From: an uncultured Alphaproteobacteria bacterium
GTDB lineage: Bacteria > Pseudomonadota > Alphaproteobacteria > RF32 > CAG-239
Reading direction: 5' to 3'
NCBI GenBank assembly: GCA_944393665.1
Contig: CALYAX010000007.1
Span: forward strand, 13,937 to 77,936
DNA: 64,000 nt
Both the position numbers and the translations under genes were made by a program. This document shows positions 7,698 to 23,695 of the stretch, in pieces. The stretch's first letter is position 1. Every line of letters begins with the position of its first letter. A model generated the notes under the pieces. It had not been told where the DNA came from and did no database searches. It worked only from the letters and a program-made list of their open reading frames with translations.

Positions 7698-7772
7698 GGT
7701 CCCATCGTCTAATGGTTAGGACACCACCCTTTCACGGTGGTAATATGGGTTCGAATCCCGTTGGGATCACCA
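7698..7772 (+). tRNA. tRNA-Glu (anticodon UUC)
   Basis: The cloverleaf can be drawn by hand. Acceptor stem GGTCCCA/TGGGATC, anticodon loop CTTTCAC, T-arm GGTTCGAATCC, and the 3' end ACCA is encoded. A terminator hairpin follows at 7781-7807. Confidence 0.85.
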
Positions 7773-7979
7773 ATCGCAATACCCTCAGTTTTTGAGGGTA
7801 TTTTTTTGTTTAAAGACCTGATGTAATCGTACGGTTTTCTAAGTGTATAAGAGATTTTGCGGTCTTGTAATTTCAAGTTCGAAAGTAAAAGGTGCAAAAT
7901 CTCTCTTTTTGTTTCTACTTTCGAACTCTGGAAGATTTGGTACGCATTATTACCCAAGGAAAGTATTGTGGCGACTGCG
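7767..7979. repeat. Direct repeat copy A (213 bp). It starts with the last 6 nt of tRNA-Glu (TCACCA) plus the tRNA terminator, and is about 90% identical to copy B.
   Basis: Visual alignment of 7767-7979 with 10590-10801, for example the shared 'gtttaaagacctgatgtaatcgtacggtt', 'cttgtaatttcaagtt[c/t]gaaagtaaaaggt', 'ctactttcgaactctggaagatttggtacgcattattacccaaggaaagtattgtggcgactgcg'. Confidence 0.8.
7781..7807 (+). terminator. Rho-independent terminator after tRNA-Glu
   Basis: 'ccctca gtttt tgaggg' followed by a T9 run. Confidence 0.6.
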
Positions 7980-8533: not shown

Positions 8534-9073
8534 TTAGGTAATTAGCTTATTATAAACTTGTTCTAACAATAGAAAATATACAGATTGACATTTTTCTAAT
8601 TCGCTATCTTTTACAATAGTACCAGCGATAGGAATATCAATTTCAACGATAAAATAATTATCCAAATAACGAACAATATCTAAAAATTGATATAAATATT
8701 CCTTAGTTATAAATTCTTGGTCTGTTAGAAAAAAATCAAAAAAACTATGTGCACATATATTTCTTATTTTTCTAGCCTTTTCTATTATGTCAATTTGGTC
8801 GCTTTTCAAGCAATAGAACTCGAATCCATATTCAAATACACCACCACAACGACTACAATTATTTTTATATTTACTGCTTACCTTTTGGTAAGGCTTGCAA
8901 TTATCAATCAGTTCTATGCTGAAAAAATCTTTTAATTTCTCTGTCAGCATAATTTTTGAATATTCGTATAAAAGCATATGTAATGTTGAAAATATTATTT
9001 GTTCTTTTAATGTTGATGTATCTTCAGACAAGAGTTTCTCCAATTTTTCATTTATACTATCGTAGGTATGCAT
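8534..9073 (-). CDS. Hypothetical protein with a HEPN-like Rx4H motif (Abi_2/AbiD-like abortive-infection candidate)
   Basis: 'EKARKIRNICAHSF' matches the HEPN R-x4-6-H signature. The protein is 179 aa, AT-rich, and located on the island. Confidence 0.3.
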   Translation of the reverse strand: MHTYDSINEKLEKLLSEDTSTLKEQIIFSTLHMLLYEYSKIMLTEKLKDFFSIELIDNCKPYQKVSSKYKNNCSRCGGVFEYGFEFYCLKSDQIDIIEKARKIRNICAHSFFDFFLTDQEFITKEYLYQFLDIVRYLDNYFIVEIDIPIAGTIVKDSELEKCQSVYFLLLEQVYNKLIT

Positions 9074-9169: not shown

Positions 9170-9790
9170 ATGGATATTAAAGAAATACATGACCAGCAAA
9201 TGTTTCATAAAGAAAATTTAATAAATGTTGAAGAGAATCAACTTTTACAGCATGTAATGGATTTCGCTAAAATGGGACTAAAAGGGATTTTCATACTAAA
9301 TGGAACGGCAGCAATATCTCTATTAACCTTATTTACACACATCATTCTTATAGAAAAATATGATATTGCGCATGGAATTTTCTGGGCAACAATTACTTTT
9401 GCTGTTGGCGCAGCCCTATCTTCATTAAGTATCTTTCTGGCATGGTATGCCCAAGGAAAATTTCAAGATACGGCCTATTATGCTAATCTAATCGAAATTG
9501 CTCGGATTAGAACTTCTCATAGTAAGGACGATAAATTAGATTACATAAAGAAAATGCACATCAAAGAAATATCTATTGATGAAAAAAATGATAAGTTTTT
9601 TAAGAGCTTAAAAATATATCAGGAAGAAAATAATAAGTATATTGATGAACAAATGAAAAAGGAAAGCTCATCAAGGCTAAAAGGAAACTTTACTCAAGGA
9701 TTTGTTGTATTTATAATTTTTCTAGCATTCGCTGCATTCGTCTATGGCATCTTTCTTACTTATGATTCTTTAGAGTGTGTTATAAAATGA
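9170..9790 (+). CDS. Hypothetical membrane protein (2-3 TM helices)
   Basis: Hydrophobic segments 'GIFILNGTAAISLLTLFTHIILI', 'IFWATITFAVGAALSSLSIFLAWY' and 'FVVFIIFLAFAAFVYGIFL'. It overlaps the next ORF by 16 nt. Confidence 0.4.
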   Translation: MDIKEIHDQQMFHKENLINVEENQLLQHVMDFAKMGLKGIFILNGTAAISLLTLFTHIILIEKYDIAHGIFWATITFAVGAALSSLSIFLAWYAQGKFQDTAYYANLIEIARIRTSHSKDDKLDYIKKMHIKEISIDEKNDKFFKSLKIYQEENNKYIDEQMKKESSSRLKGNFTQGFVVFIIFLAFAAFVYGIFLTYDSLECVIK

Positions 9791-10470
9791 TTTATTCCAA
9801 TGCCGATATTAAATTTGAGAATAGATATAGTAGTATTTTCAAGGCCCAGATAGAAATTCATAAAAAAGGTTTGGGAGAAGCTTTTTACAATGAAAAATTT
9901 CAATATTATGAAAAAGTTTTATACAATACTGATGTTATATTTGATAAAATATCTTTACTGGAAAAAAAAGCATTTAATAAAAACTTATATAAACCTTTTA
10001 AATACATAAATATTAAAGGTTTGTATCATGTTCATCATTTTCAGCCACTCAATATGGCAAAAAATTGCAAAAAAATATTCAACGCAAAAGCTAAAAATTA
10101 TTCAATGAATGTTGAACAATATGAAGAGTGCATATTCAGTGTATTATATTTATATAATCGCATGATTAAGAATTTATCTGAAAATGAAGCATATGAAAAA
10201 GCTCTGGGTTATTTAACAAGAAATAGGATCGATGACTGTTATATTGAAGCGTGCGACAAAAAGATACTAACTGGAGATTGGCTTGTCTTATTGCGTAAGG
10301 ATGATGTAAATTACTATTTAACATTAGCTAGACATGAAGAACCTCAAGATATGATTTTCAAACGTGTATTTATAGCAATTGAAGAATTAATATTTGGTAG
10401 AAAGCATGGCTTTGATATTAAGAATGTTGAAGCGGTTAAAAAGCCCTTAGAAACGGAGCTTTGGGATTAA
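9775..10470 (+). CDS. Hypothetical protein (231 aa)
   Basis: Long ORF in the low-GC island, apparently translationally coupled to the preceding membrane protein. No recognisable motif. Confidence 0.35.
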   Translation: MCYKMIYSNADIKFENRYSSIFKAQIEIHKKGLGEAFYNEKFQYYEKVLYNTDVIFDKISLLEKKAFNKNLYKPFKYINIKGLYHVHHFQPLNMAKNCKKIFNAKAKNYSMNVEQYEECIFSVLYLYNRMIKNLSENEAYEKALGYLTRNRIDDCYIEACDKKILTGDWLVLLRKDDVNYYLTLARHEEPQDMIFKRVFIAIEELIFGRKHGFDIKNVEAVKKPLETELWD

Positions 10471-10589
10471 TATTTACTTAATAGTTAGGTATACCGAAAA
10501 AAGAGGTTCGAAATTTTATTGCAACCTACATTGCATTAATGAGACTTAAAAATGTATAAAATCGCATTAGTCCGTACAATTTATTCGGT

Positions 10590-10801
10590 TCACCAATCAC
10601 AACACCTTCCTTTTTGGAGGGTGTTTTTTGTTTAAAGACCTGATGTAATCGTACGGTTTCCTTAGGGTATACGAAATTTTACTGTCTTGTAATTTCAAGT
10701 TTGAAAGTAAAAGGTTCAAAATCTCTCTTTTGTTTTCTACTTTCGAACTCTGGAAGATTTGGTACGCATTATTACCCAAGGAAAGTATTGTGGCGACTGC
10801 G
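10590..10801. repeat. Direct repeat copy B (212 bp). It begins with a tRNA 3'-end-like TCACCAATCACAA and a degenerate terminator hairpin.
   Basis: See copy A. 'ttcaccaatcacaacaccttcctttttggagggtgttttttgtttaaagacctgatgtaatcgtacggtt...'. Confidence 0.8.
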
Positions 10802-10971
10802 ATTGAAAACTTTTCATCGGCTTTAGTCAACAGTTCCGACCTTCCTTCGAGTTTGTACTGTTCTTTTTTTATCTCCTCACTCATATCACGGTATTCTTCC
10901 GGCGTGATTTTCCTTTTATATAACAGTGACCATTGCAACTTGGTTTTTGACAAGATTTTTGTAGATAACAC
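10597..10971 (-). CDS. Repeat-associated hypothetical protein (124 aa). Its C-terminal 70 aa are encoded inside repeat B, and a truncated near-identical reading frame exists in repeat A.
   Basis: The ORF extends from unique sequence into the repeat. The copy-A frame (7709-7957) lacks the N-terminal 42 aa and runs into the tRNA, so it is likely non-functional. Confidence 0.3.
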   Translation of the reverse strand: MLSTKILSKTKLQWSLLYKRKITPEEYRDMSEEIKKEQYKLEGRSELLTKADEKFSIAVATILSLGNNAYQIFQSSKVENKREILNLLLSNLKLQDSKISYTLRKPYDYIRSLNKKHPPKRKVL

Positions 10972-11371: not shown

Positions 11372-12577
11372 ATGGACAAAAGTGAAAAATTGGCACGGAT
11401 TGAAAAAATCCTGTCTCGTGGTGTAATTAAGAATATTATGCCATCTGAAGAAGAATTCAAAGCACGTTTGTTATCCGATGAGTCTATGCGTTTTTACATA
11501 GGTGCTGACCCAACTAGTAATTCATTACATTTGAGTCATGCAAAGAACTTCATGCTTTTAGAGGAGTTTAGGCAACTCGGGCATAAAGTTTTCGTTCTTT
11601 TCGGAGATTTAACCGCTTGTATCGGAGACCCTAGTGACCGGAATTCTGCTCGTGCAAGACTGACTAGAGAACAGGCTCGGAAAAATGTTGAAGATTGGGT
11701 TCGTCAAATTCGCCCCATAATTAACTTTGATGATCTTGAAAATCCTGCCGAAGTTGTTCTTAACAGTACGTGGTTTGATAAAATGTCAGTTACGAATTTA
11801 ATCGACCTGCTATCCAATTCCACAGTGCAAAGAATGCTTGAAAGGGATATGTTCCAGAAACGTCTCAGCGAGAACAGGCCTATCCATTTGCATGAGTTTA
11901 TCTACCCCATGTTTCAGGGATTTGATAGCGTCGCATTGGATGTAGATGTAGAAATTTGTGGTTTAGACCAGACATTTAATGCCCTTATGGGAAGAACTCT
12001 TGTCAAACGCTTTAAAGACAAGGAAAAGTTCGTTGTTTGTGTTAATTTGATGGAAAACCCTGTTACTGGTGAATTGATGTCAAAATCAAATGGTACAGGG
12101 GTTTTCCTTAACATTGATGCACAAACCATGTTCGGTCAAATCATGGCACTACCGGATGAAATGATTAAGCTTATTCTTATTAACAATACCCGCGTTTCTT
12201 TAGAAGAAATAGAGGCGTTGGATATTAAGAATCACCCTCGAGATGCTAAAATCTTTACAGCGACAGAAGTTGTCAGAATTTTCCATGGCCAAAAAGCAGC
12301 AAATAATGCGAAACAGACTTTTTTAGAGACATTCTCTAATAAGACGTTTCCCGCAGATGCTCCGGTTATTGAAATTGAGACCCCTGAAATTCAGGTGTTG
12401 GAACTTCTGAAAAAATGCAAAAATGAGTCGAATTCTGAATTGAGACGGCTTGTTAAGCAGGGTGCTGTAAGTGCTGATGGCAAAAAAATTACCGATGAAA
12501 CCTCAATTCTTGAGGTCAAACAAGAGCTTCAGCTCAAAGTTGGTAAACGAGGATTTTTCTTAATAAGAAGTAAGTAA
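11372..12577 (+). CDS. tyrS: Tyrosyl-tRNA synthetase paralog (class I; HIGH-like 'HLSH', KMSKS-like 'LMSKS', C-terminal S4 domain)
   Basis: 'FYIGADPTSNSLHLSHAKNFMLLEEFRQLGHKVFVLFGDLTACIGDPS' aligns with the E. coli TyrRS 'GFDPTADSLHLGHL...[22 protein letters not shown]'. 'ELMSKSNGTGVFL' corresponds to KFGKT/KMSKS. C-terminal 'LVKQGAVSADGKKITDE' is S4-like. Confidence 0.8.
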   Translation: MDKSEKLARIEKILSRGVIKNIMPSEEEFKARLLSDESMRFYIGADPTSNSLHLSHAKNFMLLEEFRQLGHKVFVLFGDLTACIGDPSDRNSARARLTREQARKNVEDWVRQIRPIINFDDLENPAEVVLNSTWFDKMSVTNLIDLLSNSTVQRMLERDMFQKRLSENRPIHLHEFIYPMFQGFDSVALDVDVEICGLDQTFNALMGRTLVKRFKDKEKFVVCVNLMENPVTGELMSKSNGTGVFLNIDAQTMFGQIMALPDEMIKLILINNTRVSLEEIEALDIKNHPRDAKIFTATEVVRIFHGQKAANNAKQTFLETFSNKTFPADAPVIEIETPEIQVLELLKKCKNESNSELRRLVKQGAVSADGKKITDETSILEVKQELQLKVGKRGFFLIRSK

Positions 12578-12701: not shown

Positions 12702-13586
12702 ATGGGAAAAGATATTATCCCTATTTTTGTATTAGGTACTCCTAGATCTGGAACTACTGTTATTGGAAAATATATTTCAACCCACAAAGATATCTTGGAC
12801 ATGGGAGAATATGCCGGTTTTGATTTTACTTATCGTGTTGCTCCCAATTTAATGAAAACATTACCGTCTACTTTTAAGGATGAGTATTTATTTAGTCTTC
12901 AAAATCATGCAACACAATTCGCTCACGAAATGGCAATAAAAAATAATTGCCATTATTTTTGTGATTCTACTCCATGGACATTATTAGCTATGGATAAAAT
13001 TAAAGACAAATTGCCCGGTGCAAAATTTGTTTTATGTATACGAGAACCTCAAGGTGTGATACAGAGCCTGGAACGCAGCTTCAAAAGCGGGAGGAAATGG
13101 GCCGGAGAAAATAATCAGGAGCGTTTTAGACTTTGGAAAGATTTTTATGAAAAAGTAAAATTTATTCCTCAAAAAGATCTAATGGTATTCAATTATAGTA
13201 ATTTCTGCAAAAAACCTGAGGAAGAACTCTCTCTATTAGATCAGCAGTTATTTGCGCATGGTATTACTCCAACTTCGCTAGATAAAACGATTTTTGCAGA
13301 AACTCATGCCACTGTTGTATCTGATCATCGGCCTGTTAGTGCCAGAGTTGATAATAACGGTCATATTACATTATTGGCACGGGAAGATTGGAACAATGAA
13401 AAATGGACCATTCAAGATGAAATGATGTTGCAAACTGACAATGGATATAAGGAAATTTTAAATTTTTTAAAGAATTTACCGTTAAAAAATAGTTTACACC
13501 CTGCTGTTATTTATAAAAATAAATATCTTTCTTCTTTAGCTCAAAATGTTAATATGGTAACAAATTTGAAAGATAATATTCGGTAA
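12702..13586 (+). CDS. PAPS-dependent sulfotransferase family protein
   Basis: N-terminal 5'-PSB-like P-loop 'VLGTPRSGTTVIGKYI'. Size and architecture are typical of the Sulfotransfer family. Confidence 0.5.
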   Translation: MGKDIIPIFVLGTPRSGTTVIGKYISTHKDILDMGEYAGFDFTYRVAPNLMKTLPSTFKDEYLFSLQNHATQFAHEMAIKNNCHYFCDSTPWTLLAMDKIKDKLPGAKFVLCIREPQGVIQSLERSFKSGRKWAGENNQERFRLWKDFYEKVKFIPQKDLMVFNYSNFCKKPEEELSLLDQQLFAHGITPTSLDKTIFAETHATVVSDHRPVSARVDNNGHITLLAREDWNNEKWTIQDEMMLQTDNGYKEILNFLKNLPLKNSLHPAVIYKNKYLSSLAQNVNMVTNLKDNIR

Positions 13587-13619
13587 AGAAAGTACATATA
13601 TTTAAGCTAGAGTTTAATT

Positions 13620-14690
13620 ATGAAAAATTATGAGCTACTACTGCACCATATTCAAAATGGTGTTGTGTTATCAAGATTAGAAATTTTTAATGCTTTGAAG
13701 ACATTGTACCATGAGACAGACAACCAGCAAGCAAAATTTTGCATGGGAATGATTCTTTATGGGTTATCCGTAAGAGTTCCTACGCCTGAAGAACTTTGGG
13801 GCTTAGTTGATTTTGTTGAATATCTAGAACCATCTCTCCTAAAAAATAAGAGAAAACTTCCAATTTGTGAACCTGTCATTGGTTTGGCGGGAAGTGGCAA
13901 AAAAGGTATAAAAACCTTTAATATATCAACTATCTCTGCAATTGTTGCAAGTGCGGCGGGGTGCTTTATTTCTAAAGCCGTATCCAAATCAGTTTCTTCT
14001 GTGACCGGCTCTTCTGATATATTAAGTGCTGCCGGAGTTAACATAGATATTTCATTTGAAAAAATGATAAAAATTTTTACAGAAACAGGGCTTGGTATTT
14101 TTCAAATCGAAAAGACCATTCCTAAATTTGACAATTTTTATGGTGGAATATTTTTAGTCCCTCATGCACTATCGTATGCGCTTGCTGCTATTGTTAACCC
14201 TATTTTATGTGATAGCATTATTTATGGTTTTGCTGGAAAAAATATTGAAATTTCCAGTAAAATTTTGCATCAGATAGGATTAAAAAAAGGTGTGGTTGTT
14301 TCATCAACAGATGATAAAGTCTTATATATTGATGAGCTCACTCCATTGCAATATAATAATATTTCTTATATTGAGACACAAAAAACCTCTAAAAATATTA
14401 ATCTAACAAACATATTTGGATGTAAAAGATGTTCTCCTGATGAATTGAAAAGCAGCATAGATATAAATGGTCAATTAGATATTTTTAATTTATGTCTTTC
14501 AGGAAAGGCATCTCAAGCTCAAAATAATGCTATTGCAATGAATACAGCTTTTATGATTACCGAAGCTGGGATTACAGACAATCTAAAAACAGCTTTTGAA
14601 ATGGCTCATGATATTATTATGTCGGGAAAGGCATTAAAACAATTTAATCATTTCAAAGAAATGGTCAATGATTTGGGAGAGGACAGATGA
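13620..14690 (+). CDS. Divergent anthranilate phosphoribosyltransferase (TrpD)/glycosyltransferase family 3 homolog with an altered PRPP-binding loop
   Basis: 'GLAGSGKKGIKTFNISTISAIVASAAGCFISKAVSKSVSSVTGSSDILSAAGVNIDI' compared with the E. coli TrpD '[54 protein letters not shown]'. GTGGDG and KHGNR are replaced, suggesting a changed substrate. Confidence 0.6.
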   Translation: MKNYELLLHHIQNGVVLSRLEIFNALKTLYHETDNQQAKFCMGMILYGLSVRVPTPEELWGLVDFVEYLEPSLLKNKRKLPICEPVIGLAGSGKKGIKTFNISTISAIVASAAGCFISKAVSKSVSSVTGSSDILSAAGVNIDISFEKMIKIFTETGLGIFQIEKTIPKFDNFYGGIFLVPHALSYALAAIVNPILCDSIIYGFAGKNIEISSKILHQIGLKKGVVVSSTDDKVLYIDELTPLQYNNISYIETQKTSKNINLTNIFGCKRCSPDELKSSIDINGQLDIFNLCLSGKASQAQNNAIAMNTAFMITEAGITDNLKTAFEMAHDIIMSGKALKQFNHFKEMVNDLGEDR

Positions 14691-15685
14691 ATAATAGTGT
14701 AATTCTATTTGATATAAAAAAGAATTGCTGGAAAGAATATTCTCGTCCTCTGCCAGAGTTAACTACCGACGAAAGCCTCGTTAAGGTAGAATTTGCCGGA
14801 TTGTGCGGCAGTGACATGCACAGAATAAAAGCACCTACAAGCCATGAAACTCAGGTTGTCATGGGACATGAAATAATTGGTACTGTTAAAAAATCTGATA
14901 AAGAAACATTAATAGGAAAGAAAGTCGTCATTAACCCAATTGCTAATTGTAGAAAATGCTCTTCTTGCAATGATGGCTTAACACAATTCTGTTCAAATAG
15001 TAGAAATATAGGAAAAAATATCGATGGAGCCTTTGCTAAATATTTAAAAGTTCCCAACAAAAGTCTGTATATTGTTCCAGCGAATTTTCAAGCTGAGTTG
15101 GGGGTTTTAGTTGATGGAGCGGCCGTGATCATAAATGGTATAAAAAAGCTGTCAAAAAAACCCCATTCTGTTTTAGTTATTGGGGATGGAACCGTTGGCT
15201 GCCTATCCATTGCGGTGTTGAAAGCCTTATATCCGGAAATAAAAATTTCGTTACGCGGGCATCATAATACTGATTATGTAAATCAAGTATATAGCACATC
15301 AGCCCCCCAAGAAAATGAAAAGTTTGATTTAACAATCGAAACTGTAGGACGTGCACAATCAGATACTTTAAACCAATGTGTTGAATATGCTTCTATTGGG
15401 GGTCAAATTTTAATAATGGGGGTTTATCCTCCTAACTTTTCTTTAGATTTTAATGCCAGAACCGCTTTTTATAAGGAATTAGCAATATATGGTGTTAATT
15501 CGTTTTGTGTTACAAAAAAAAGAGACGATTTTAGAGAAGCATTAGCTTTAATTGATTCCCATCCGGAGTTTTTTGCTCCATTAATCACTCACAAATTTTT
15601 ATTATCCGATTTCAATCTTGGTATTGCAAAAATGTTGGATAAAAGTAAAGAAGCTGTCATAAAAGTTATTTATACTACTGCTTAA
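14687..15685 (+). CDS. Zn-dependent medium-chain alcohol dehydrogenase (threonine/sorbitol dehydrogenase-like)
   Basis: 'GLCGSDMH', 'GHEIIGTV', the structural Zn Cys cluster 'CRKCSSCNDGLTQFC', and Rossmann 'VLVIGDGTVG'. A 4-nt ATGA overlap with the upstream gene. Confidence 0.75.
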   Translation: MNNSVILFDIKKNCWKEYSRPLPELTTDESLVKVEFAGLCGSDMHRIKAPTSHETQVVMGHEIIGTVKKSDKETLIGKKVVINPIANCRKCSSCNDGLTQFCSNSRNIGKNIDGAFAKYLKVPNKSLYIVPANFQAELGVLVDGAAVIINGIKKLSKKPHSVLVIGDGTVGCLSIAVLKALYPEIKISLRGHHNTDYVNQVYSTSAPQENEKFDLTIETVGRAQSDTLNQCVEYASIGGQILIMGVYPPNFSLDFNARTAFYKELAIYGVNSFCVTKKRDDFREALALIDSHPEFFAPLITHKFLLSDFNLGIAKMLDKSKEAVIKVIYTTA

Positions 15686-15692
15686 GGATTTC

Positions 15693-16310
15693 ATGAAAGA
15701 CATCAATATAAAAAATTATCAGCTTGTTTTATTGGACTGGGATGGTACATTAGTCAGAACTCGAGAGAATGTTATTTATGCAATGCAACCCGTTTCTCAA
15801 AAATATAGAAAACTAGACTGGTTTGAATTAGATAAAATTAGAAATCACAATTTATCTTTAGAAGACAATTTTGAAAATTTCTTTCATGAAAATAAAGATA
15901 TTGCATACGATTTATATCTAAAAACTTACATATCTGGTATAAAAAATAATGTGCATAAAATTACCGGTGCGGATAAATTACTTAAAATTCTAGATACCTT
16001 ATCCATAAAAAAAGCTATAGTTACCAGCAAAGACAGAATACTTTGGGAAATAGAAAAGAACACATTTAATACATCTTTTGATTTTTCTGTATGTAAAGAT
16101 GAATGTGATCACAATAAACCCCTGCCTGATCCAATACTTAAGGCAATAGCCCATTTTTCAATTTCCAAAAGTAACGTGTTGATGATTGGAGACAGCCGAC
16201 ACGATTATATAGCGGCTAAAAAAGCAAAAATCGATTCTATCATTATTGGAGAAGAAATATACGCTACTTTTGATAATTTAGACACACTAATAAAAAAAAT
16301 ATTCTTTTAG
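15693..16310 (+). CDS. HAD-superfamily hydrolase (phosphatase)
   Basis: Motif I 'LVLLDWDGTLV'. Motifs 'VTSK' and 'IGDSRHD' later in the protein. 8 nt after the ADH stop. Confidence 0.65.
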   Translation: MKDINIKNYQLVLLDWDGTLVRTRENVIYAMQPVSQKYRKLDWFELDKIRNHNLSLEDNFENFFHENKDIAYDLYLKTYISGIKNNVHKITGADKLLKILDTLSIKKAIVTSKDRILWEIEKNTFNTSFDFSVCKDECDHNKPLPDPILKAIAHFSISKSNVLMIGDSRHDYIAAKKAKIDSIIIGEEIYATFDNLDTLIKKIFF

Positions 16311-16435: not shown

Positions 16436-17557
16436 ATGTCTAAAGATATTTCATCAAACTTAATCTTTAATGATGAATATTATAAAGAAGTCATTGATAA
16501 ATATGGCTACAATGCTTTTGATTTCAAACCTATTGATTTTGATATTTCTCATTTGGATAAAAAGGCACTCAATCAACGGTGGTTATGTCATTTTGATGGA
16601 GAACCTTTTTCTCAAGCAATAAATAATAAAGAAAAAGCAATCGTCACAACTGGAGTTGGATTATCCGGGGCTCCTCACATGGGAACAATTTCCCAAATGA
16701 TGCGTGCAATATTTTTACAGGAACAAGGATTTAATGTTCAATTCGTCTTGGGGGACTTAGATTCATATAATGCTCGCTCTCAACCATATCCTGTTGTAAA
16801 AGCCAGGGCTGAACAATATAAAGAATTCATTACCAACCTTGGCTTTTCAAAGGAAAAAGGAATTTTACGCTCACAAGATAATAATCCTGAAGTCTGCAGA
16901 ACGGCTTATTTGATTTCTCGATGCCTGACAGATGAAGATTTCCTTAATGCAGAAGAAGACTTATCGGAATTATATCAAAAACAAGGTGCTTATCCAGGTA
17001 TTAAATATCCGGTTAAACAGGCTATCAATCTAATGGTGGCTGATTTTATTCATCTTGGAATGGCAGATAAGAATAAAAGTGTTATGGTAATGCTTGGTTT
17101 GGAAGAACATCTCTATGTCAGAATTGCAAAGGATGTTATAAAAAGGATGGAAATGCCTTTTCATCTCGGAGCAATGTATTCCAAAATTATTAAAGGCTTC
17201 AATGGTTTTCCTAAAATGAGTAAAAGTATTCCCGGATCCTCAATAAACGTTGATATGAATATTGATCAAATAAGACATAAACTTCAACATGAAGAAGGGC
17301 ATTACAGCAAACCTGATGATTCTGTTGCCTATCAAATGATGTGTGCTGTCTCAAATTATACCCCTAGAGATCTAAATATTCTTCACGAAAAATGTTCTGT
17401 CGGCGGTCGGTATTGGAGTGCGGCAAAAGATGAATATGCAGAATATCTTGACTCTATTTTTAAAAAATGGCCTAAGGATAAGGTATTCGATCGGAGTGCA
17501 ACTATGAATCCTATAGATATGTTTATTATGAAAAATGGCTGCGGCAGAAAACTCTAA
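16436..17557 (+). CDS. trpS: Tryptophanyl-tRNA synthetase paralog (class I, KMSKS present)
   Basis: 'TGVGLSGAPHMGTISQMM' resembles the TrpRS 'GxQPSGELHLGNY'. 'GLEEHLYVRIAKDV' resembles 'GEDQKQHLELSRDIA'. Exact 'FPKMSKSIPGS'. Confidence 0.7.
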   Translation: MSKDISSNLIFNDEYYKEVIDKYGYNAFDFKPIDFDISHLDKKALNQRWLCHFDGEPFSQAINNKEKAIVTTGVGLSGAPHMGTISQMMRAIFLQEQGFNVQFVLGDLDSYNARSQPYPVVKARAEQYKEFITNLGFSKEKGILRSQDNNPEVCRTAYLISRCLTDEDFLNAEEDLSELYQKQGAYPGIKYPVKQAINLMVADFIHLGMADKNKSVMVMLGLEEHLYVRIAKDVIKRMEMPFHLGAMYSKIIKGFNGFPKMSKSIPGSSINVDMNIDQIRHKLQHEEGHYSKPDDSVAYQMMCAVSNYTPRDLNILHEKCSVGGRYWSAAKDEYAEYLDSIFKKWPKDKVFDRSATMNPIDMFIMKNGCGRKL

Positions 17558-17958
17558 AATTTAATTTTAGCCAAGACTTCATCACTATTATATTCTTTTT
17601 TTTCAAGCTTAGGCCATGTATCTAACCCATCATTGTCAAAACGAGGGAAAATATGGATATGAAAATGGAATACTGACTGCTGAGCAGATTTACCGCTGGC
17701 ATGTAATATATTAATACCTGTAGCACCTAACCGTTCTTTTAAATGCAAACTAATTTTTTTTGCAAACTTGATAATATGAGTAAGCTCTTCTTCTGGAATA
17801 TCAAAAATATTTTCATAATGCTTATTAGGAACGATAAGCAAATGACCATAGACCTCCATTTTTCTGGGTAGAAAACAAGATAAGATATTATCTTGATAAA
17901 TTATTTTTCCCGGAAGTTCTTTGGCACAAATCTTACAAAATACACACTCCATGAGCAA
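17554..17958 (-). CDS. HIT-family (histidine triad) nucleotide phosphoramidase/hydrolase
   Basis: N-terminal 'CVFCKI' and the histidine triad 'HFHIHIFPR'. It is convergent with the TrpRS-like gene, sharing 4 nt with it. Confidence 0.75.
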   Translation of the reverse strand: MLMECVFCKICAKELPGKIIYQDNILSCFLPRKMEVYGHLLIVPNKHYENIFDIPEEELTHIIKFAKKISLHLKERLGATGINILHASGKSAQQSVFHFHIHIFPRFDNDGLDTWPKLEKKEYNSDEVLAKIKF

Positions 17959-18706
17959 CTCCTTATTGGAAAATTATATTATTTGTAGCTTAATATAATA
18001 AAAAATATATGTCAAACAGGTAGTTAATGAGTAAACTATATAAAAAATACCAATCCAAGTTAAATTTACTGGAATTTTCAATACAAATTATTTCAAAAGA
18101 AAATAAAAAAAGATTTTTGAAGGATATAATTATATCGCTAATGTTGCTTTAGATGAATTTCCTCGGATATCTTTTCAACAAGGCAGTACTTTGATGACAC
18201 CGCATATTCACGGAATATTTTCATAGTTGTCAAAACGGATTTGTGTGGAAATATATTCTTTTATAATACTCTCAGGTAGCATTTTTTTATCCTTATCTAA
18301 AATTTTAATTTTCATAAAATTTAGAGCGACCGAAATTTTAAGGTACAAAAAAGCATCTTAAAACTTCAAACAAAAGTCCTAAGACGCTAGTTTTGGTCCG
18401 GATATTTTTTTAACAGACTTTACGCTAAGCACTAGCAACGCACGAGAGTCCCGAGGAAGAGCCCTCGGAAAATTCCAGGCACCTTGTTTCCAAGATACAA
18501 GGTTATTGTGCCTTATTTTTGTAAAATTATCAAGTTTATATTTGTTGTGATTAAAACTTATAGTTTTTTGTTTGTTGGATTGTCAGAGAATGAGGAACTT
18601 TAATTTTTCAGTACGAATTTATCGTTTTTTCGAAACAACACACCAGACATCAAGAAAACGAGTTTTTTGTTGCTTCAAAAAAATTACTGATATTTGTTAC
18701 ATTGAG

Positions 18707-19825
18707 CTAAAAAGGAAGTTCATCATAGATTTGTTTAGCTTCTAAATATTCTGTTTGTATATTGCTAATAAATGTTTCACCAAATGTTTCTACGAGCTGA
18801 TTTAATACATTGAATTTTCCATATTGCTCATGTAATTTATAAAGCGTCGAATACGGGTATTTATCAATATTTAAATTTTTTATACTTGAGATGAATAGGC
18901 TAGACATAGTATCATTCATAAAAATATCTGTTAGACTAGAGGAAAATGATAGATTTAGTGAATAAATTTTATAATACTCTTTATGGTCAATATATTCAAA
19001 AATATATTGCATATATAAGGGCAATAAATCATTATTATTTTTAATTTCGTAGCATTCCATATTTTTGTTGTCGCACCAGTCTTTCAAGCTTGTTAATAAT
19101 ATTTTATTAATGCGTTTTTGAGAGAGTTTAGATATATCTTTCCAGTGTTCATTTCTTAAAATATATATTAGCAGAGCAATTTCTTTTAAATTGTTAGATT
19201 TTTCTAGTTTTGTATCAGCACTTTTAATATAAATGTATTGTTCATTTTGAGGGAGACTATTAAATATTTTATATGTAAAATTAAATACATTAGGATTGAT
19301 ACTATCATCACATAAAGAAATTAATGTATCTAATAATTTTTTTTCTGGAATTCTATTTAGAATTTCATTTATATATTCTTCATCGTCGACATAATATAAA
19401 TCATTAAGTTTTTGATGAATATCATTTATAGAATAAAAAGCTTCTCCTTTTATAAGTGCGGCTAGCGCATAATTAATCATTATTAGCTGTAAATCACAGA
19501 CCTCTTTAGACGGGGTTATAATATTGTGGTGAACTGGATTTCTGTACATATAATATAAACTACAAATGTAGCTCATCATTCCTTGTTGGATATTTTTATC
19601 TGTTTCCGTTTTTAGTGGGTTCATTTTTATTAAAGGTTTGTTTAGTGAAAATGCTTCTTGAACTAGTTTAGCTCCATCTTTGTCTAATCCAGACTTTTCA
19701 CGCAATTTATTGGTTAAATAAAGCATTGCATTGCTTAATACGTCTCGGTAGTTTTCTATTTCATAATTTTTTTTTATGAAATTATATAAATCATTATCAA
19801 TATTAATTTCCGGCCTGAATTTCAT
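18707..19825 (-). CDS. Hypothetical protein (372 aa), very AT-rich
   Basis: Long ORF with no recognisable catalytic motif. Confidence 0.35.
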   Translation of the reverse strand: MKFRPEINIDNDLYNFIKKNYEIENYRDVLSNAMLYLTNKLREKSGLDKDGAKLVQEAFSLNKPLIKMNPLKTETDKNIQQGMMSYICSLYYMYRNPVHHNIITPSKEVCDLQLIMINYALAALIKGEAFYSINDIHQKLNDLYYVDDEEYINEILNRIPEKKLLDTLISLCDDSINPNVFNFTYKIFNSLPQNEQYIYIKSADTKLEKSNNLKEIALLIYILRNEHWKDISKLSQKRINKILLTSLKDWCDNKNMECYEIKNNNDLLPLYMQYIFEYIDHKEYYKIYSLNLSFSSSLTDIFMNDTMSSLFISSIKNLNIDKYPYSTLYKLHEQYGKFNVLNQLVETFGETFISNIQTEYLEAKQIYDELPF

Positions 19826-19847: not shown

Positions 19848-20204
19848 TTATTTGCTATTCCACCATGCTAAAGCAGCTAATCCGGCTAATGAGATAGATT
19901 GAATTATATTTCCTAAGATAGATTCCTTTGCTCTATAATTATATTTAATAGTTTTTAAAATGCTATCTGTCCCGATTAATGCACAAATGAAAATTATACC
20001 CATAAAAATAAATGGAGGCATTATCTGTTTTATATTTTCTTTGTTTTGATATAAAGAAATCATATCTAAACAATAAGATATAAGCCATATAACAATTAAC
20101 CAAATAACAGCTAAAATGATTGTGGCTGATACTTTTGAAATGTTGTTTGCTAAAAGATTAGTTTCTGTTTTAGGTTCTTGTTCTGTCTTTGTTTCTATGT
20201 CCAC
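19848..20204 (-). CDS. Small hypothetical membrane protein (3 TM)
   Basis: 'ATIILAVIWLIVIWLISY', 'FIFMGIIFICALIG', 'IIQSISLAGLAALAWW'. Confidence 0.35.
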   Translation of the reverse strand: MDIETKTEQEPKTETNLLANNISKVSATIILAVIWLIVIWLISYCLDMISLYQNKENIKQIMPPFIFMGIIFICALIGTDSILKTIKYNYRAKESILGNIIQSISLAGLAALAWWNSK

Positions 20205-20700
20205 TAGAGATATCCTTTCAATTTTTTTAATCTATATTACACCACTTTGACTTACAAGATAAAATGTAATTATATTTTTTTATCTTTGGGATAAATATTA
20301 GAGTTAATAAAATGGTGATGAATGATATATCAAATTAATTTTCTATAATTTCTTGATATTTGTGATTATTTTGTAAAAATGTCTTAGCTAATCGGTATGT
20401 GTACATAGTTGCCTTGTAATATTCAGGAGTAAATAATAGTTCGAAATTCGTTGCGAAACTGTCACCAATGCAAACGGCGGCCTACAAAATGGCTGCTTTT
20501 TCTTTATTTTCCAAAGCTTTCAGCGAGTTCGAGTGTTTGATTTTCAAAAATTGCGTTTGGGGAAGTTTTTCTGAACTTTGGCGCTAAGGTTTCTTTGTTT
20601 TTCAATGGATTAATTGATTTGTTTGGTTTTGAGATTCTGGGATATTTAAAACTTGTCAATTAAAATAATTTATTGTTTAATTTCATTATAGGAGATTACA

Positions 20701-21177: not shown

Positions 21178-21393
21178 AAGCTCGTAAACTGTGAGTTAAG
21201 AAGCACCAATACAAACAGTACTCTTTTCAGGGCGCTGTTTTGCTTTTGTAATCAGGGCTTTCAGCGAGTTCGAAAGTTGTAAATACAAAAATTGCATTTT
21301 TGGAAATTTTACGAGCTCACCTTGACAAAATTACAATAAAATCAAGCACTAAACTATACATTTGAGTATTTTTATTGACAAAAAAATATAGAT

Positions 21394-22708: not shown

Positions 22709-23695
22709 CTAAGCTGGCAGATACAACTTACGTAGTGGCAGAAGAACCTTTCCTTCTGCTCTAAAATTATCGTAATGCACACCTATCAGCTCGGTCAGGA
22801 TATCTAAATCGACCAAGAATACGGGGGTCTTAGCCCTTTCTGCTTCATATCTAGCTTCTTTAGTAAAACCACCCGTGCTGACGTAAATACAGCGATCTCC
22901 GACCTGTCTTCCACCGAGGAAAGTTCTAATTTCAGGAGCTCCCATTTGTCCTTTGCGATGTTTAACCTCAACAAAAATACGTGGCTCTTCCAGGCCCAAA
23001 CCATCTCTGGAGGCAAAAACGTCAATACCCCGGTCTGCCCCTTTAGGACTTCTACGAGCAATATAACCCATTGCATTCAATATTTCTTTGACAAGTTCTT
23101 CCATATCATCTGGAGATAAATTTAATATTCGATCTTTTAATGTTTCTGTTGAATTTTCAAGAAGTTCATTAGATTGAAGTTCCAGCTCTTCAGCAACTTC
23201 CTGTTCATTTTTGGCAATTTCTTTTTTGTTTTTAAGGAGGCTCAAAATTTCAACTTCAGCATCGTGAGAAAGACGAAACACTGTTGACAGACTGCCCAAA
23301 GAATTTTTAGAAGTACTGGACAAATCATCTCTGGATATTGTTCTAGCATTCCATTCAACTTTACGCAGATTGGGATATTCCTTAATGAGTTTATTATTAT
23401 AATAGTAATCGCTGACAACTTCGCCAATGTAATACAAGCGGTTACTTTTATCATATGTTATAATGTAATCACCCTTTTTTATGAAATTAACAAAAGAATC
23501 AATGATGCCAATCCACTGGAATATAGCTTTTTCATTAGGGTATTTTTCCTGTACAAGTTCCTTAATTTGATTTCTGCTTTTTCCAGCCAAATCACCTAAA
23601 GCCTCCCAGCCAAGAGCCGCAACTTTATTTTTTAAGAATAAAGGAAGTAATTCTCCTCCCTGAGAACGAACCATCCAGATATTCACCATGATCAA
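22709..23695 (-). CDS. Mrr-family restriction endonuclease (Mrr_N plus Mrr_cat PD-(D/E)xK)
   Basis: C-terminal 'GADRGIDVFASRD...IFVEVKHRKGQMGAPEIRTFLG...YVSTGGFTKEA', typical of Mrr_cat. The N-terminal 110 aa are Mrr_N-like. Confidence 0.6.
   Translation of the reverse strand: MIMVNIWMVRSQGGELLPLFLKNKVAALGWEALGDLAGKSRNQIKELVQEKYPNEKAIFQWIGIIDSFVNFIKKGDYIITYDKSNRLYYIGEVVSDYYYNNKLIKEYPNLRKVEWNARTISRDDLSSTSKNSLGSLSTVFRLSHDAEVEILSLLKNKKEIAKNEQEVAEELELQSNELLENSTETLKDRILNLSPDDMEELVKEILNAMGYIARRSPKGADRGIDVFASRDGLGLEEPRIFVEVKHRKGQMGAPEIRTFLGGRQVGDRCIYVSTGGFTKEARYEAERAKTPVFLVDLDILTELIGVHYDNFRAEGKVLLPLRKLYLPA

Follow-up and report, generated by a model that had tools for sequence, protein, structure and literature searches.

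Recurrent linkage of a histidine triad hydrolase gene to a mobile, aminoacyl-tRNA synthetase-centred gene cluster

We analysed the gene for a histidine triad (HIT) family hydrolase in a 64,000-nt stretch of DNA from an uncultured alphaproteobacterium (GTDB lineage RF32; CAG-239), which spans positions 13,937 to 77,936 of contig CALYAX010000007.1 in assembly GCA_944393665.1; we call this whole stretch the window and count all coordinates of its features from its first nucleotide. The HIT gene converges on, and overlaps, the last gene of an operon, which encodes a divergent protein resembling tryptophanyl-tRNA synthetase (TrpRS). Judged by the loci that we compared, the linkage between HIT genes and this cluster of genes is real but facultative. 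We consider it an even call that the window HIT is a generalist hydrolase that was recruited as a protective or clean-up accessory of the cluster and persists as an orphan once the cluster has gone. That a HIT hydrolase accompanies a cluster centred on aminoacyl-tRNA synthetases (aaRSs) is a variation on a known theme, and most of the interest lies in the uncharacterised cluster and in the natural substrate of the HIT protein.

HIT genes recur beside the cluster in distant lineages

The loci compared comprise 66 from genomes, at the species level, and 61 from metagenomes (labels beginning with L denote loci). When lineages are defined at 90% identity of the TrpRS-like protein, 13 of the 40 informative ones have a HIT gene no more than 3 kb from the cluster; at 70%, 6 of 16 do. 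In eight HIT-cluster loci the gap is no more than ~100 bp or the genes overlap. The 1.23 Mb of cluster-proximal sequence yield 14 HIT matches, the 0.59 Mb of far flank none. Given that a single Hint gene or so is usual for a prokaryote (PMC3130732), these counts place the linkage far above chance. The linked HIT proteins of the environmental clade (described below) all score above the Pfam HIT threshold.

In the window, the block comprises genes for a tyrosyl-tRNA synthetase (TyrRS), a sulfotransferase, a TrpD-like phosphoribosyltransferase, a Zn-dependent alcohol dehydrogenase (ADH), a HAD-family phosphatase and the TrpRS-like protein, in this order and all on the plus strand, and it is closed by the HIT gene on the minus strand. 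If HIT is an accessory of the cluster, we expect to find it adjacent both in orthologous and in independent versions, and this is the case (L025 for the former; L007, L083, L119, L130-L133, L137, L139 and L141 for the latter). In L025, a yak-rumen alphaproteobacterial metagenome-assembled genome (MAG), DNA homology to the window covers the TyrRS gene, then the TrpD-like through the HAD gene, and then positions 16466-17952. This last blastn match is unbroken across the junction of the TrpRS-like and HIT genes, whose overlap is kept, and ends at the HIT start codon, with HIT as the terminal gene of the conserved block; the sulfotransferase is missing from this otherwise orthologous cluster.

The more distant versions differ in arrangement. 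In L007-L011, the TrpRS-like protein is 77% identical to that of the window, the remaining genes only ~30%, and the gene order is different: genes for TyrRS-like, TrpRS-like, TrpD-like and ADH proteins lie on one strand of a GC-delimited island, and an operon of APH-kinase, His_Phos_1 and HIT genes lies on the other. This HIT protein is 55% identical to the window HIT, and its gene is inside the island, not at its edge. Overlaps comparable to that in the window measure 6 nt in L025 and 11 nt, between HIT and the stop of the ADH gene, in L007. L083, from Patescibacteria, has HIT divergent against the TrpD-like gene. In an environmental clade whose TrpRS-like proteins are ~40% identical, the genes for TrpRS-like, TrpD-like, ADH, HAD-TyrRS and HIT proteins are co-directional and often abut (L119, L130, L131, L141, L122/L123 and L132 are the loci with co-directional HIT); in several of these loci HIT abuts, or lies at most ~100 bp from, the HAD-TyrRS gene, and in L123 it is found in a co-directional gene run ~2.2 kb further on, near glycosyltransferases. 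Other environmental arrangements are TrpRS-like followed by HIT and ADH followed by HIT, L137 and L139 are further variants, and in L133 HIT is on the opposite strand, convergent, ~1 kb beyond ADH.

Two unrelated HIT subfamilies, with the motifs '...LHASGKxAQQS..HFHxHxxPR' and '...GVPHAHLHLVP', occupy the same slot within one TrpRS-like lineage, and such non-orthologous displacement indicates that what is selected is the activity and not one given gene. A linked HIT is missing from all ~45 Streptomyces versions of the cluster and from most Firmicutes versions (at the Lactobacillus iners copy, a HIT is 2.7 kb away); HIT is therefore an optional accessory and not a core biosynthetic step. Since the abutting gene elsewhere is that for ADH, TyrRS or the TrpD-like protein, the tie is to the cluster and not to the TrpRS-like gene specifically, which undercuts the proposal in the original prediction, made from the window sequence alone, that the 4-nt overlap reflects co-evolution with the aaRS paralog. 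Its broader suggestion, that this HIT may be an immunity or proof-reading component rather than a generic Hint, finds partial support in the placement, which is non-random (13 of 40 lineages, two subfamilies), but none with respect to a TrpRS-like-specific tie or to the immunity role of the MccH type that is discussed below.

The HIT gene and its stand-alone orthologs

The features of the HIT gene are as follows.

17554..17952, minus strand: HIT-family hydrolase gene, 132 aa (Pfam PF01230)
17554..17557: tail-to-tail stop overlap of the TrpRS-like and HIT genes, 4 nt (direct sequence reading)
17959-17964, minus strand: Shine-Dalgarno sequence AAGGAG of the HIT gene (read from sequence)
17953..18063, minus strand: HIT 5' region, with a promoter-like site at 18063-18035 (promoter scan)
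18388-18352, minus strand: terminator-like hairpin after the Ymh gene, between Ymh and HIT

The convergent arrangement was predicted correctly: the TrpRS-like stop codon TAA lies at 17555-17557 on the plus strand and the HIT stop codon TAG is the complement of 17554-17556. The predicted start needs correction. The mechanically called open reading frame (ORF), 17554..17958 on the minus strand, begins at a TTG at 17958 that is an ORF-calling artefact, and the real start is almost certainly the ATG at 17952 (MECVFCKI...), because all homologs begin there (MECVFCKI/MDCIFCKI) and because AAGGAG is found 6 nt upstream. The gene appears to be monocistronic, with its own promoter; ~60 nt 5' of the start are conserved with the stand-alone orthologs in L001, L018 and L155, and 750 nt separate the Ymh and HIT genes. 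We found no terminator between HIT and the convergent operon.

The main rival to a recruited accessory is that the protein is a housekeeping Hit/Hint, a mere neighbour or passenger of the mobile cluster without functional connection to it. We consider this rather unlikely, but several observations favour it and weigh against the accessory role. Orthologs that are 65-90% identical stand alone in the window's own lineage (L001, L018, L152, L154 and L155-L158), in at least four contexts: GNAT/GNAT/HIT/nitroreductase/MarR; MerR/SMR/HIT/resolvase; LepA/GNAT/HIT; and an unknown gene/HIT/NADH-dehydrogenase genes. Orthologs of 86-90% identity are found without the cluster in four contexts. Thus, the presence of HIT does not depend on the cluster, as that of a strict accessory gene would. 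Stand-alone HIT genes are also far commoner than the cluster (P0244 occurs on 651 contigs, P0008 on 353 and the TrpRS-like protein on tens), and most cluster lineages have no linked HIT. Within the motif regions that we compared, no residue separates cluster-linked from stand-alone copies; the triad is canonical, without a cluster-specific substitution, and purifying selection on HIT is strong and the same for linked and stand-alone copies (ratio of nonsynonymous to synonymous substitution rates, dN/dS, of 0.04-0.10 against five orthologs). The promoter region is the gene's own and is common to stand-alone copies, and convergent, overlapping transcription speaks against simple co-regulation of HIT with the operon. 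No second HIT is present in the 64-kb window, whose HIT may thus serve its lineage as the sole, housekeeping copy. A dedicated clade of cluster-linked HITs was considered and rejected, since the linked proteins are interspersed with HITs of the candidate phyla radiation (CPR) and of archaea in a neighbour-joining tree, itself weak, of these ~130-residue proteins.

On the other side, a housekeeping passenger would not be expected beside the cluster in at least six deep lineages, with varied partners and orientations and co-operonic in several of them, nor would it be expected to come from two HIT subfamilies while the far flanks contain none, or to lie inside the island of L007. A further argument comes from a stand-alone copy. 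In L018-L023, directly after the HIT stop (~10399-10512), we find a ~115-nt pseudogene remnant of the 3' end of a TrpRS-like gene, which corresponds to the last 38 codons at 71% protein identity and is interrupted by an in-frame stop; further upstream, the homology is lost. The HIT gene next to it is intact, its product is 89% identical to the window HIT, and it belongs to a common gut alphaproteobacterial lineage (651 contigs). The cluster was therefore deleted there and HIT was kept, so that this stand-alone copy descends from a cluster-linked one and not the reverse. The scar is equally compatible with a pattern of orphan immunity and with a generic function. The original prediction had named an orthologous housekeeping hinT context as evidence against a special role; contexts without the cluster do exist for orthologs of 86-90% identity, which partly bears this out, yet the L018 copy among them carries the trace of a TrpRS-like gene.

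The scar and the HIT gene in L018 together make up a small islet of low GC, compared to ~52% for the genome.

The window HIT is a canonical family member

The window protein belongs to the HIT family (Pfam PF01230, E=1.1e-21, 77.7 bits against a cut-off of 21.5). The family motif is HxHxHxx, in which x is hydrophobic and the central His is the nucleophile, and a conserved N-terminal His (H39 in Escherichia coli) stabilises the third His of the triad (PMC7157772). The window HIT has the canonical triad, H96-F-H98-I-H100-I-F, keeps the N-terminal His as H37 (in GHLLIVP, which aligns with GHTLVIP of its PDB relatives), and carries a CxxC zinc motif (C3, C6) and a subgroup signature, ATGxNxLHASGKxAQQS...NDGLDxW. 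By these residues it is predicted to be a catalytically intact, canonical HIT-family nucleoside-monophosphate hydrolase.

Its closest PDB relatives are the generic Hit proteins 2eo4, 1y23 and 3imi, at 82-86 bits (86 for 2eo4); among the PDB matches, those to E. coli HinT and human HINT1 reach 41-44 bits, and those to Fhit 35-38 bits. The E. coli HinT equivalog model NF007965 gives 45.2 bits against a cut-off of 206, and the Mycoplasma HinT model NF045834 gives 83.9 bits against 130. These NCBIfam cut-offs rule out the status of an E. coli-type HinT equivalog and, together with the nearest structures, make the earlier label 'HinT-type' too specific. The generic COG0537 Hit proteins (Bacillus subtilis 1Y23, B. 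anthracis 3IMI and Sulfolobus tokodaii 2EO4) resemble the window protein in length and in the layout CxxC...GH...HxHxHxxPR, but have no assigned physiological substrate and are not known to be linked to a cluster with an aaRS paralog. E. coli HinT and human HINT1 share its fold and catalytic triad, but are distant in sequence. The residues that follow the triad are 'PR' in the window HIT, as in Fhit and Hit proteins; Hints generally carry 'GG' there. One database '90% cluster' seemed to place the HIT protein in Parabacteroides distasonis, but this was a clustering artefact, as P0243 is a DUF6057 protein.

If the window HIT protects or cleans up for the cluster, the family mechanism suggests how. 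His98 would attack the alpha-phosphate of a conjugate of a nucleoside monophosphate (NMP) with a group X, a covalent NMP-enzyme intermediate would form, and water would release NMP. The conjugate may be an (amino)acyl-nucleotide-type species that is made by, or poisons, the two class Ic synthetase-type enzymes of the cluster core, which consists of the TrpRS-like (putatively adenylate-forming) enzyme, the TrpD-like phosphoribosyltransferase, the Zn-polyol dehydrogenase, the HAD phosphatase and TyrRS; candidates are an abortive or mis-activated aminoacyl-adenylate and an adenylate-like product of the pathway. HIT would act in trans, from its own promoter and outside core biosynthesis, as a clean-up or self-protection enzyme. 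There is a precedent for a HIT enzyme that acts on a synthetase-made aminoacyl-adenylate: lysyl-AMP made by LysU is hydrolysed by E. coli HinT (Chou & Wagner 2007, as cited in PMC3130732). We infer both the substrate class and the protective role, and favour the latter because of this precedent, the optional presence of HIT, the sub-operon with kinase and phosphatase genes in L007, the repeated recruitment, and the retention of HIT as an orphan, which parallels the stand-alone homologs of MccH (PMC7157772).

An auxiliary metabolic role is a minor and fairly improbable alternative. HIT would then remove nucleotidyl or sulfo-nucleotidyl groups from an intermediate, degrade diadenosine tetra- or triphosphate (Ap4A/Ap3A) formed as a by-product of the additional adenylate-forming enzymes, or hydrolyse a sulfation-related compound of the adenosine 5'-phosphosulfate (APS) type. 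The HxHxHxxPR motif and the nearest PDB relatives, which fall in COG0537, 'Ap4A hydrolase and other HIT hydrolases', are consistent with such a role, as are the Fhit matches, the position of HIT in L123, co-operonic after HAD-TyrRS and near glycosyltransferases, and the sulfotransferase in the window. However, HIT is missing from most cluster versions, including the sulfotransferase-bearing L014, L027 and L097, is present without a sulfotransferase in L025 and L007, and stays intact after cluster loss. A tie of HIT to sulfation by way of APS or 3'-phosphoadenosine 5'-phosphosulfate (PAPS) was rejected, as HIT and sulfotransferase do not co-vary.

The original prediction had appealed to microcin C (McC), a peptide-nucleotide antibiotic. 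HIT enzymes can indeed confer immunity to an aaRS-directed adenylate mimic, and homologs of these enzymes also occur stand-alone; their clade, MccH, is defined by ExxxxxHxHxKxx and by loss of the N-terminal His, and canonical HinTs neither hydrolysed processed McC nor protected cells (PMC7157772). If the window HIT were an immunity phosphoramidase of this type, which cleaves the phosphorus-nitrogen (P-N) bond of a processed McC-like antibiotic, we would expect Lys at the third triad position, Phe instead of the N-terminal His and, six residues ahead of the triad, Glu. Instead, His100 and His37 are kept and Ala90 stands where the Glu would be (...SAQQSVFHFH...), so that MccH membership is ruled out on three sequence signatures. 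The modelling template of MccH, 3p0t, scores only 39.5 bits compared to 86 for 2eo4, and no MccA/MccB-type genes are found among the annotated ORFs of the cluster, which argues against an mcc-like location. MccH from Hyalangium minutum and its clade do resemble the window case in concept: there, a HIT gene is linked to a cluster involving an aaRS-directed adenylate, and homologs that confer resistance also stand alone. They differ in clade, in HxHxK versus HxHxH, in the lost N-terminal His and in the Glu; moreover, the window cluster is not one for a peptide made on ribosomes and modified after translation (RiPP) of the MccB kind. In spite of the precedent and of the aaRS-type genes in the neighbourhood, a P-N-cleaving role is contradicted at the sequence level and we regard it as highly improbable; the microcin precedent does not transfer.

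The cluster is a conserved and mobile unit

The genes of the cluster in the window are as follows.

11372..12577, plus strand: TyrRS, full-length bacterial type (TIGR00234, 312.9 bits; cut-off 113.8)
12702..13586, plus strand: sulfotransferase, a variable tailoring gene (Pfam Sulfotransfer_3, 7e-17)
13620..14690, plus strand: TrpD-like phosphoribosyltransferase of the Glycos_transf_3 family (Pfam 5.5e-32; TIGR01245 138 bits, cut-off 199)
14687..15685, plus strand: Zn-dependent alcohol/polyol dehydrogenase, threonine/sugar-alcohol dehydrogenase-like (Pfam ADH_N and ADH_zinc_N)
15693..16310, plus strand: HAD-family phosphatase (Pfam HAD_2, 3.8e-30)
16436..17557, plus strand: TrpRS-like protein, a divergent class Ic aaRS-like protein of 373 aa, last gene of the plus-strand operon

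The TyrRS of the island we infer to be an extra copy. The dehydrogenase scores 127 bits with a tdh-like NCBIfam model, which is below the cut-off. The name 'TrpRS-like', used in the original prediction, is a fair one: the protein matches Pfam tRNA-synt_1b at 44 bits, and its AlphaFold model (pTM 0.82) best matches the archaeal/eukaryotic TrpRS 3a04 (TM 0.71, 20% identity). The NCBIfam trpS models, however, give only 54-77 bits against cut-offs of 177-451, and in sequence the family profile is about as distant from archaeal TyrRS as from archaeal TrpRS. Throughout the TrpRS-like family, the HIGH-like PHMGT motif and the KMSKS motif do not vary.

This family is small and sharply bounded (114 clusters at E<=1e-30 among 1.84e9 representatives), and in the loci examined its gene is almost always joined by TrpD-like, Zn-ADH and TyrRS genes, frequently also by HAD; TyrRS is present with the cluster in nearly all of ~125 loci. 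The cluster core is found in ~60 species, from Streptomyces to archaea, and the carriers include ~45 Streptomyces species, Kitasatospora, Clostridia, Bacilli, Thermodesulfobacteriota, Patescibacteria, Aenigmatarchaeota and many gut and rumen bacteria. Tailoring genes vary and include those for a sulfotransferase, an APH-type kinase with a His_Phos_1 phosphatase, glycosyltransferases, radical SAM enzymes and a methyltransferase. Several core enzymes occur as fusions: TrpD-like with TrpRS-like (P0387, P0417 and P0390, 604-736 aa), HAD with TrpRS-like (P0230, 590 aa) and HAD with TyrRS (L123 13183-15075 and L131 3305-5164, 619-630 aa). These fusions argue that the enzymes of the cluster act in one pathway. 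NCBIfam has no specific model for any cluster member, the Streptomyces version included, and a literature search found no description of the cluster, which is weak evidence, as most subscription journals lay outside its coverage. The cluster is a unit that is conserved, moves horizontally and has yet to be characterised.

In the Firmicutes versions L014, L027 and L097, a different sulfotransferase (Sulfotransfer_1) heads the operon. In six low-GC MAGs of Bacilli/Firmicutes (L014, L027, L031, L085, L097 and L138), two tandem TyrRS genes follow the cluster and may represent a housekeeping copy beside a cluster-specific one.

Clusters for aaRS inhibitors carry self-resistance copies of the target, such as mupM for mupirocin, agnB2 for agrocin 84, borO for borrelidin and abmK for albomycin. 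Like these, the window cluster is a biosynthesis-like operon on a mobile island with which a full-length, housekeeping-type TyrRS travels; unlike them, its TyrRS is fused in some lineages to the HAD phosphatase of the pathway, which hints at a catalytic role and not a purely protective one. A speculative reading of the whole, which we think unlikely to be right in full, is that the cluster is an undescribed and widely transferred pathway (in Streptomyces, Clostridia, gut and rumen Alphaproteobacteria, Patescibacteria and DPANN archaea) in which the TrpD-like enzyme builds a ribosyl (nucleoside-like) scaffold from phosphoribosyl pyrophosphate (PRPP) to which the TrpRS-like ligase attaches an aminoacyl group. 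What results would be a tyrosyl-adenylate or aminoacyl-nucleoside mimic directed against TyrRS, the co-carried TyrRS an insensitive target, and HITs with canonical triads a portable antidote that has been recruited repeatedly and is kept by gut non-producers as orphan immunity after cluster loss. The HAD-TyrRS fusions, which suggest that TyrRS may serve in the pathway instead of conferring resistance, weaken the idea of a TyrRS inhibitor plus immunity, and with it the protective role of HIT.

The physiological reason for bacterial Hit/Hint proteins is still called a mystery (PMC3130732). The repeated linkage of HIT to the cluster, the exchange of subfamilies and the retention after loss provide a concrete setting in which to seek a natural HIT substrate. 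The cluster is noteworthy in itself, as it is carried by ~45 Streptomyces species and many gut and rumen bacteria and has its own TyrRS and domain fusions. If it makes a TyrRS-directed compound, this would represent a new class of synthetase inhibitor, together with a new resistance determinant that circulates in the gut microbiota; if HIT proves to be generic, it is an ordinary housekeeping gene beside an interesting cluster.

The low-GC island and its surroundings

The HIT locus lies in a low-GC island of ~16 kb (~7.8-23.8 kb of the window), with a GC content of 26-34% compared to 45-54% in the flanks. The GC content drops right after a tRNA-Glu gene; the island that holds the HIT locus was acquired horizontally. 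HIT is followed on the right by genes for a Ymh/HEPN-like protein, a small membrane protein and a GNAT, an ORF of unknown function and an Mrr-like nuclease gene, and the right half has the appearance of a defence island. The features concerned are the following.

7698-7772, plus strand: tRNA-Glu(UUC), left edge of the low-GC island
18707-19825, minus strand: Ymh/TIGR02391 HEPN-like protein (PADLOC, PD-Lambda-3_B-like)
19848-20204, minus strand: small membrane protein, adjoining the Ymh gene
22709-23695, minus strand: Mrr-like nuclease (PADLOC candidate defence family PDC-S02, 295.7 bits)

That HIT is itself an anti-phage defence component, acting with the Ymh/HEPN-like gene upstream and the Mrr-like nuclease, is suggested by PADLOC matches of HIT to the ThsC 'HIT family' model (63.5 bits), of Ymh to PD-Lambda-3_B/HEPN and of the nuclease to PDC-S02, but we rejected this as having very little chance of being correct, since the ThsC match reflects only the generic HIT domain, with no ThsA or ThsB to complete a Thoeris system (PADLOC gave no Ths match among the tested neighbours), the terminator-like hairpin and the 750-nt gap intervene between Ymh and HIT, and neither Ymh nor Mrr lies beside HIT in L001, L018, L025, L007 or L152-L158.

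A search for a tRNA-derived direct repeat at the right end of the island found none, and revealed only an island-internal repeat of 191 nt. Rfam reported only tRNA over 7-25 kb, with no T-box or riboswitch before tyrS. The two copies of the 191-nt direct repeat (92% identity), at 7789-7979 and 10611-10801, bracket a 2.8-kb segment that holds three ORFs without a Pfam match (8534-9073, 9170-9790 and 9775-10470), and on the minus strand they code for C-terminal pieces of ORFs that resemble each other (7709-7957 and 10597-10971); the repeat may be a relic of successive insertions.

An intergenic element of ~135 nt at 21179-21314 has complementary ends, AGCTCGTAAA...TTTACGAGCT, and a partial copy at 20516-20569. 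It is predicted to form a long hairpin (-39 kcal/mol) and has the look of a miniature inverted-repeat transposable element (MITE) or a repetitive extragenic palindromic (REP) sequence. The element is also found twice in each of the stand-alone-HIT loci L001-L006 (~13499-13630 and 15459-15534), in one case abutting their tRNA-Glu gene. These loci have a lower-GC patch as well, which ends at a tRNA-Glu gene 92% identical to that of the window and has HIT at its far end. Just beyond the island of the window, on the minus strand at 26120-28822, lies a gene for a 900-aa autotransporter with Chlamydia PMP-type repeats, and autotransporters of the AIDA/pertactin type are present in related loci.

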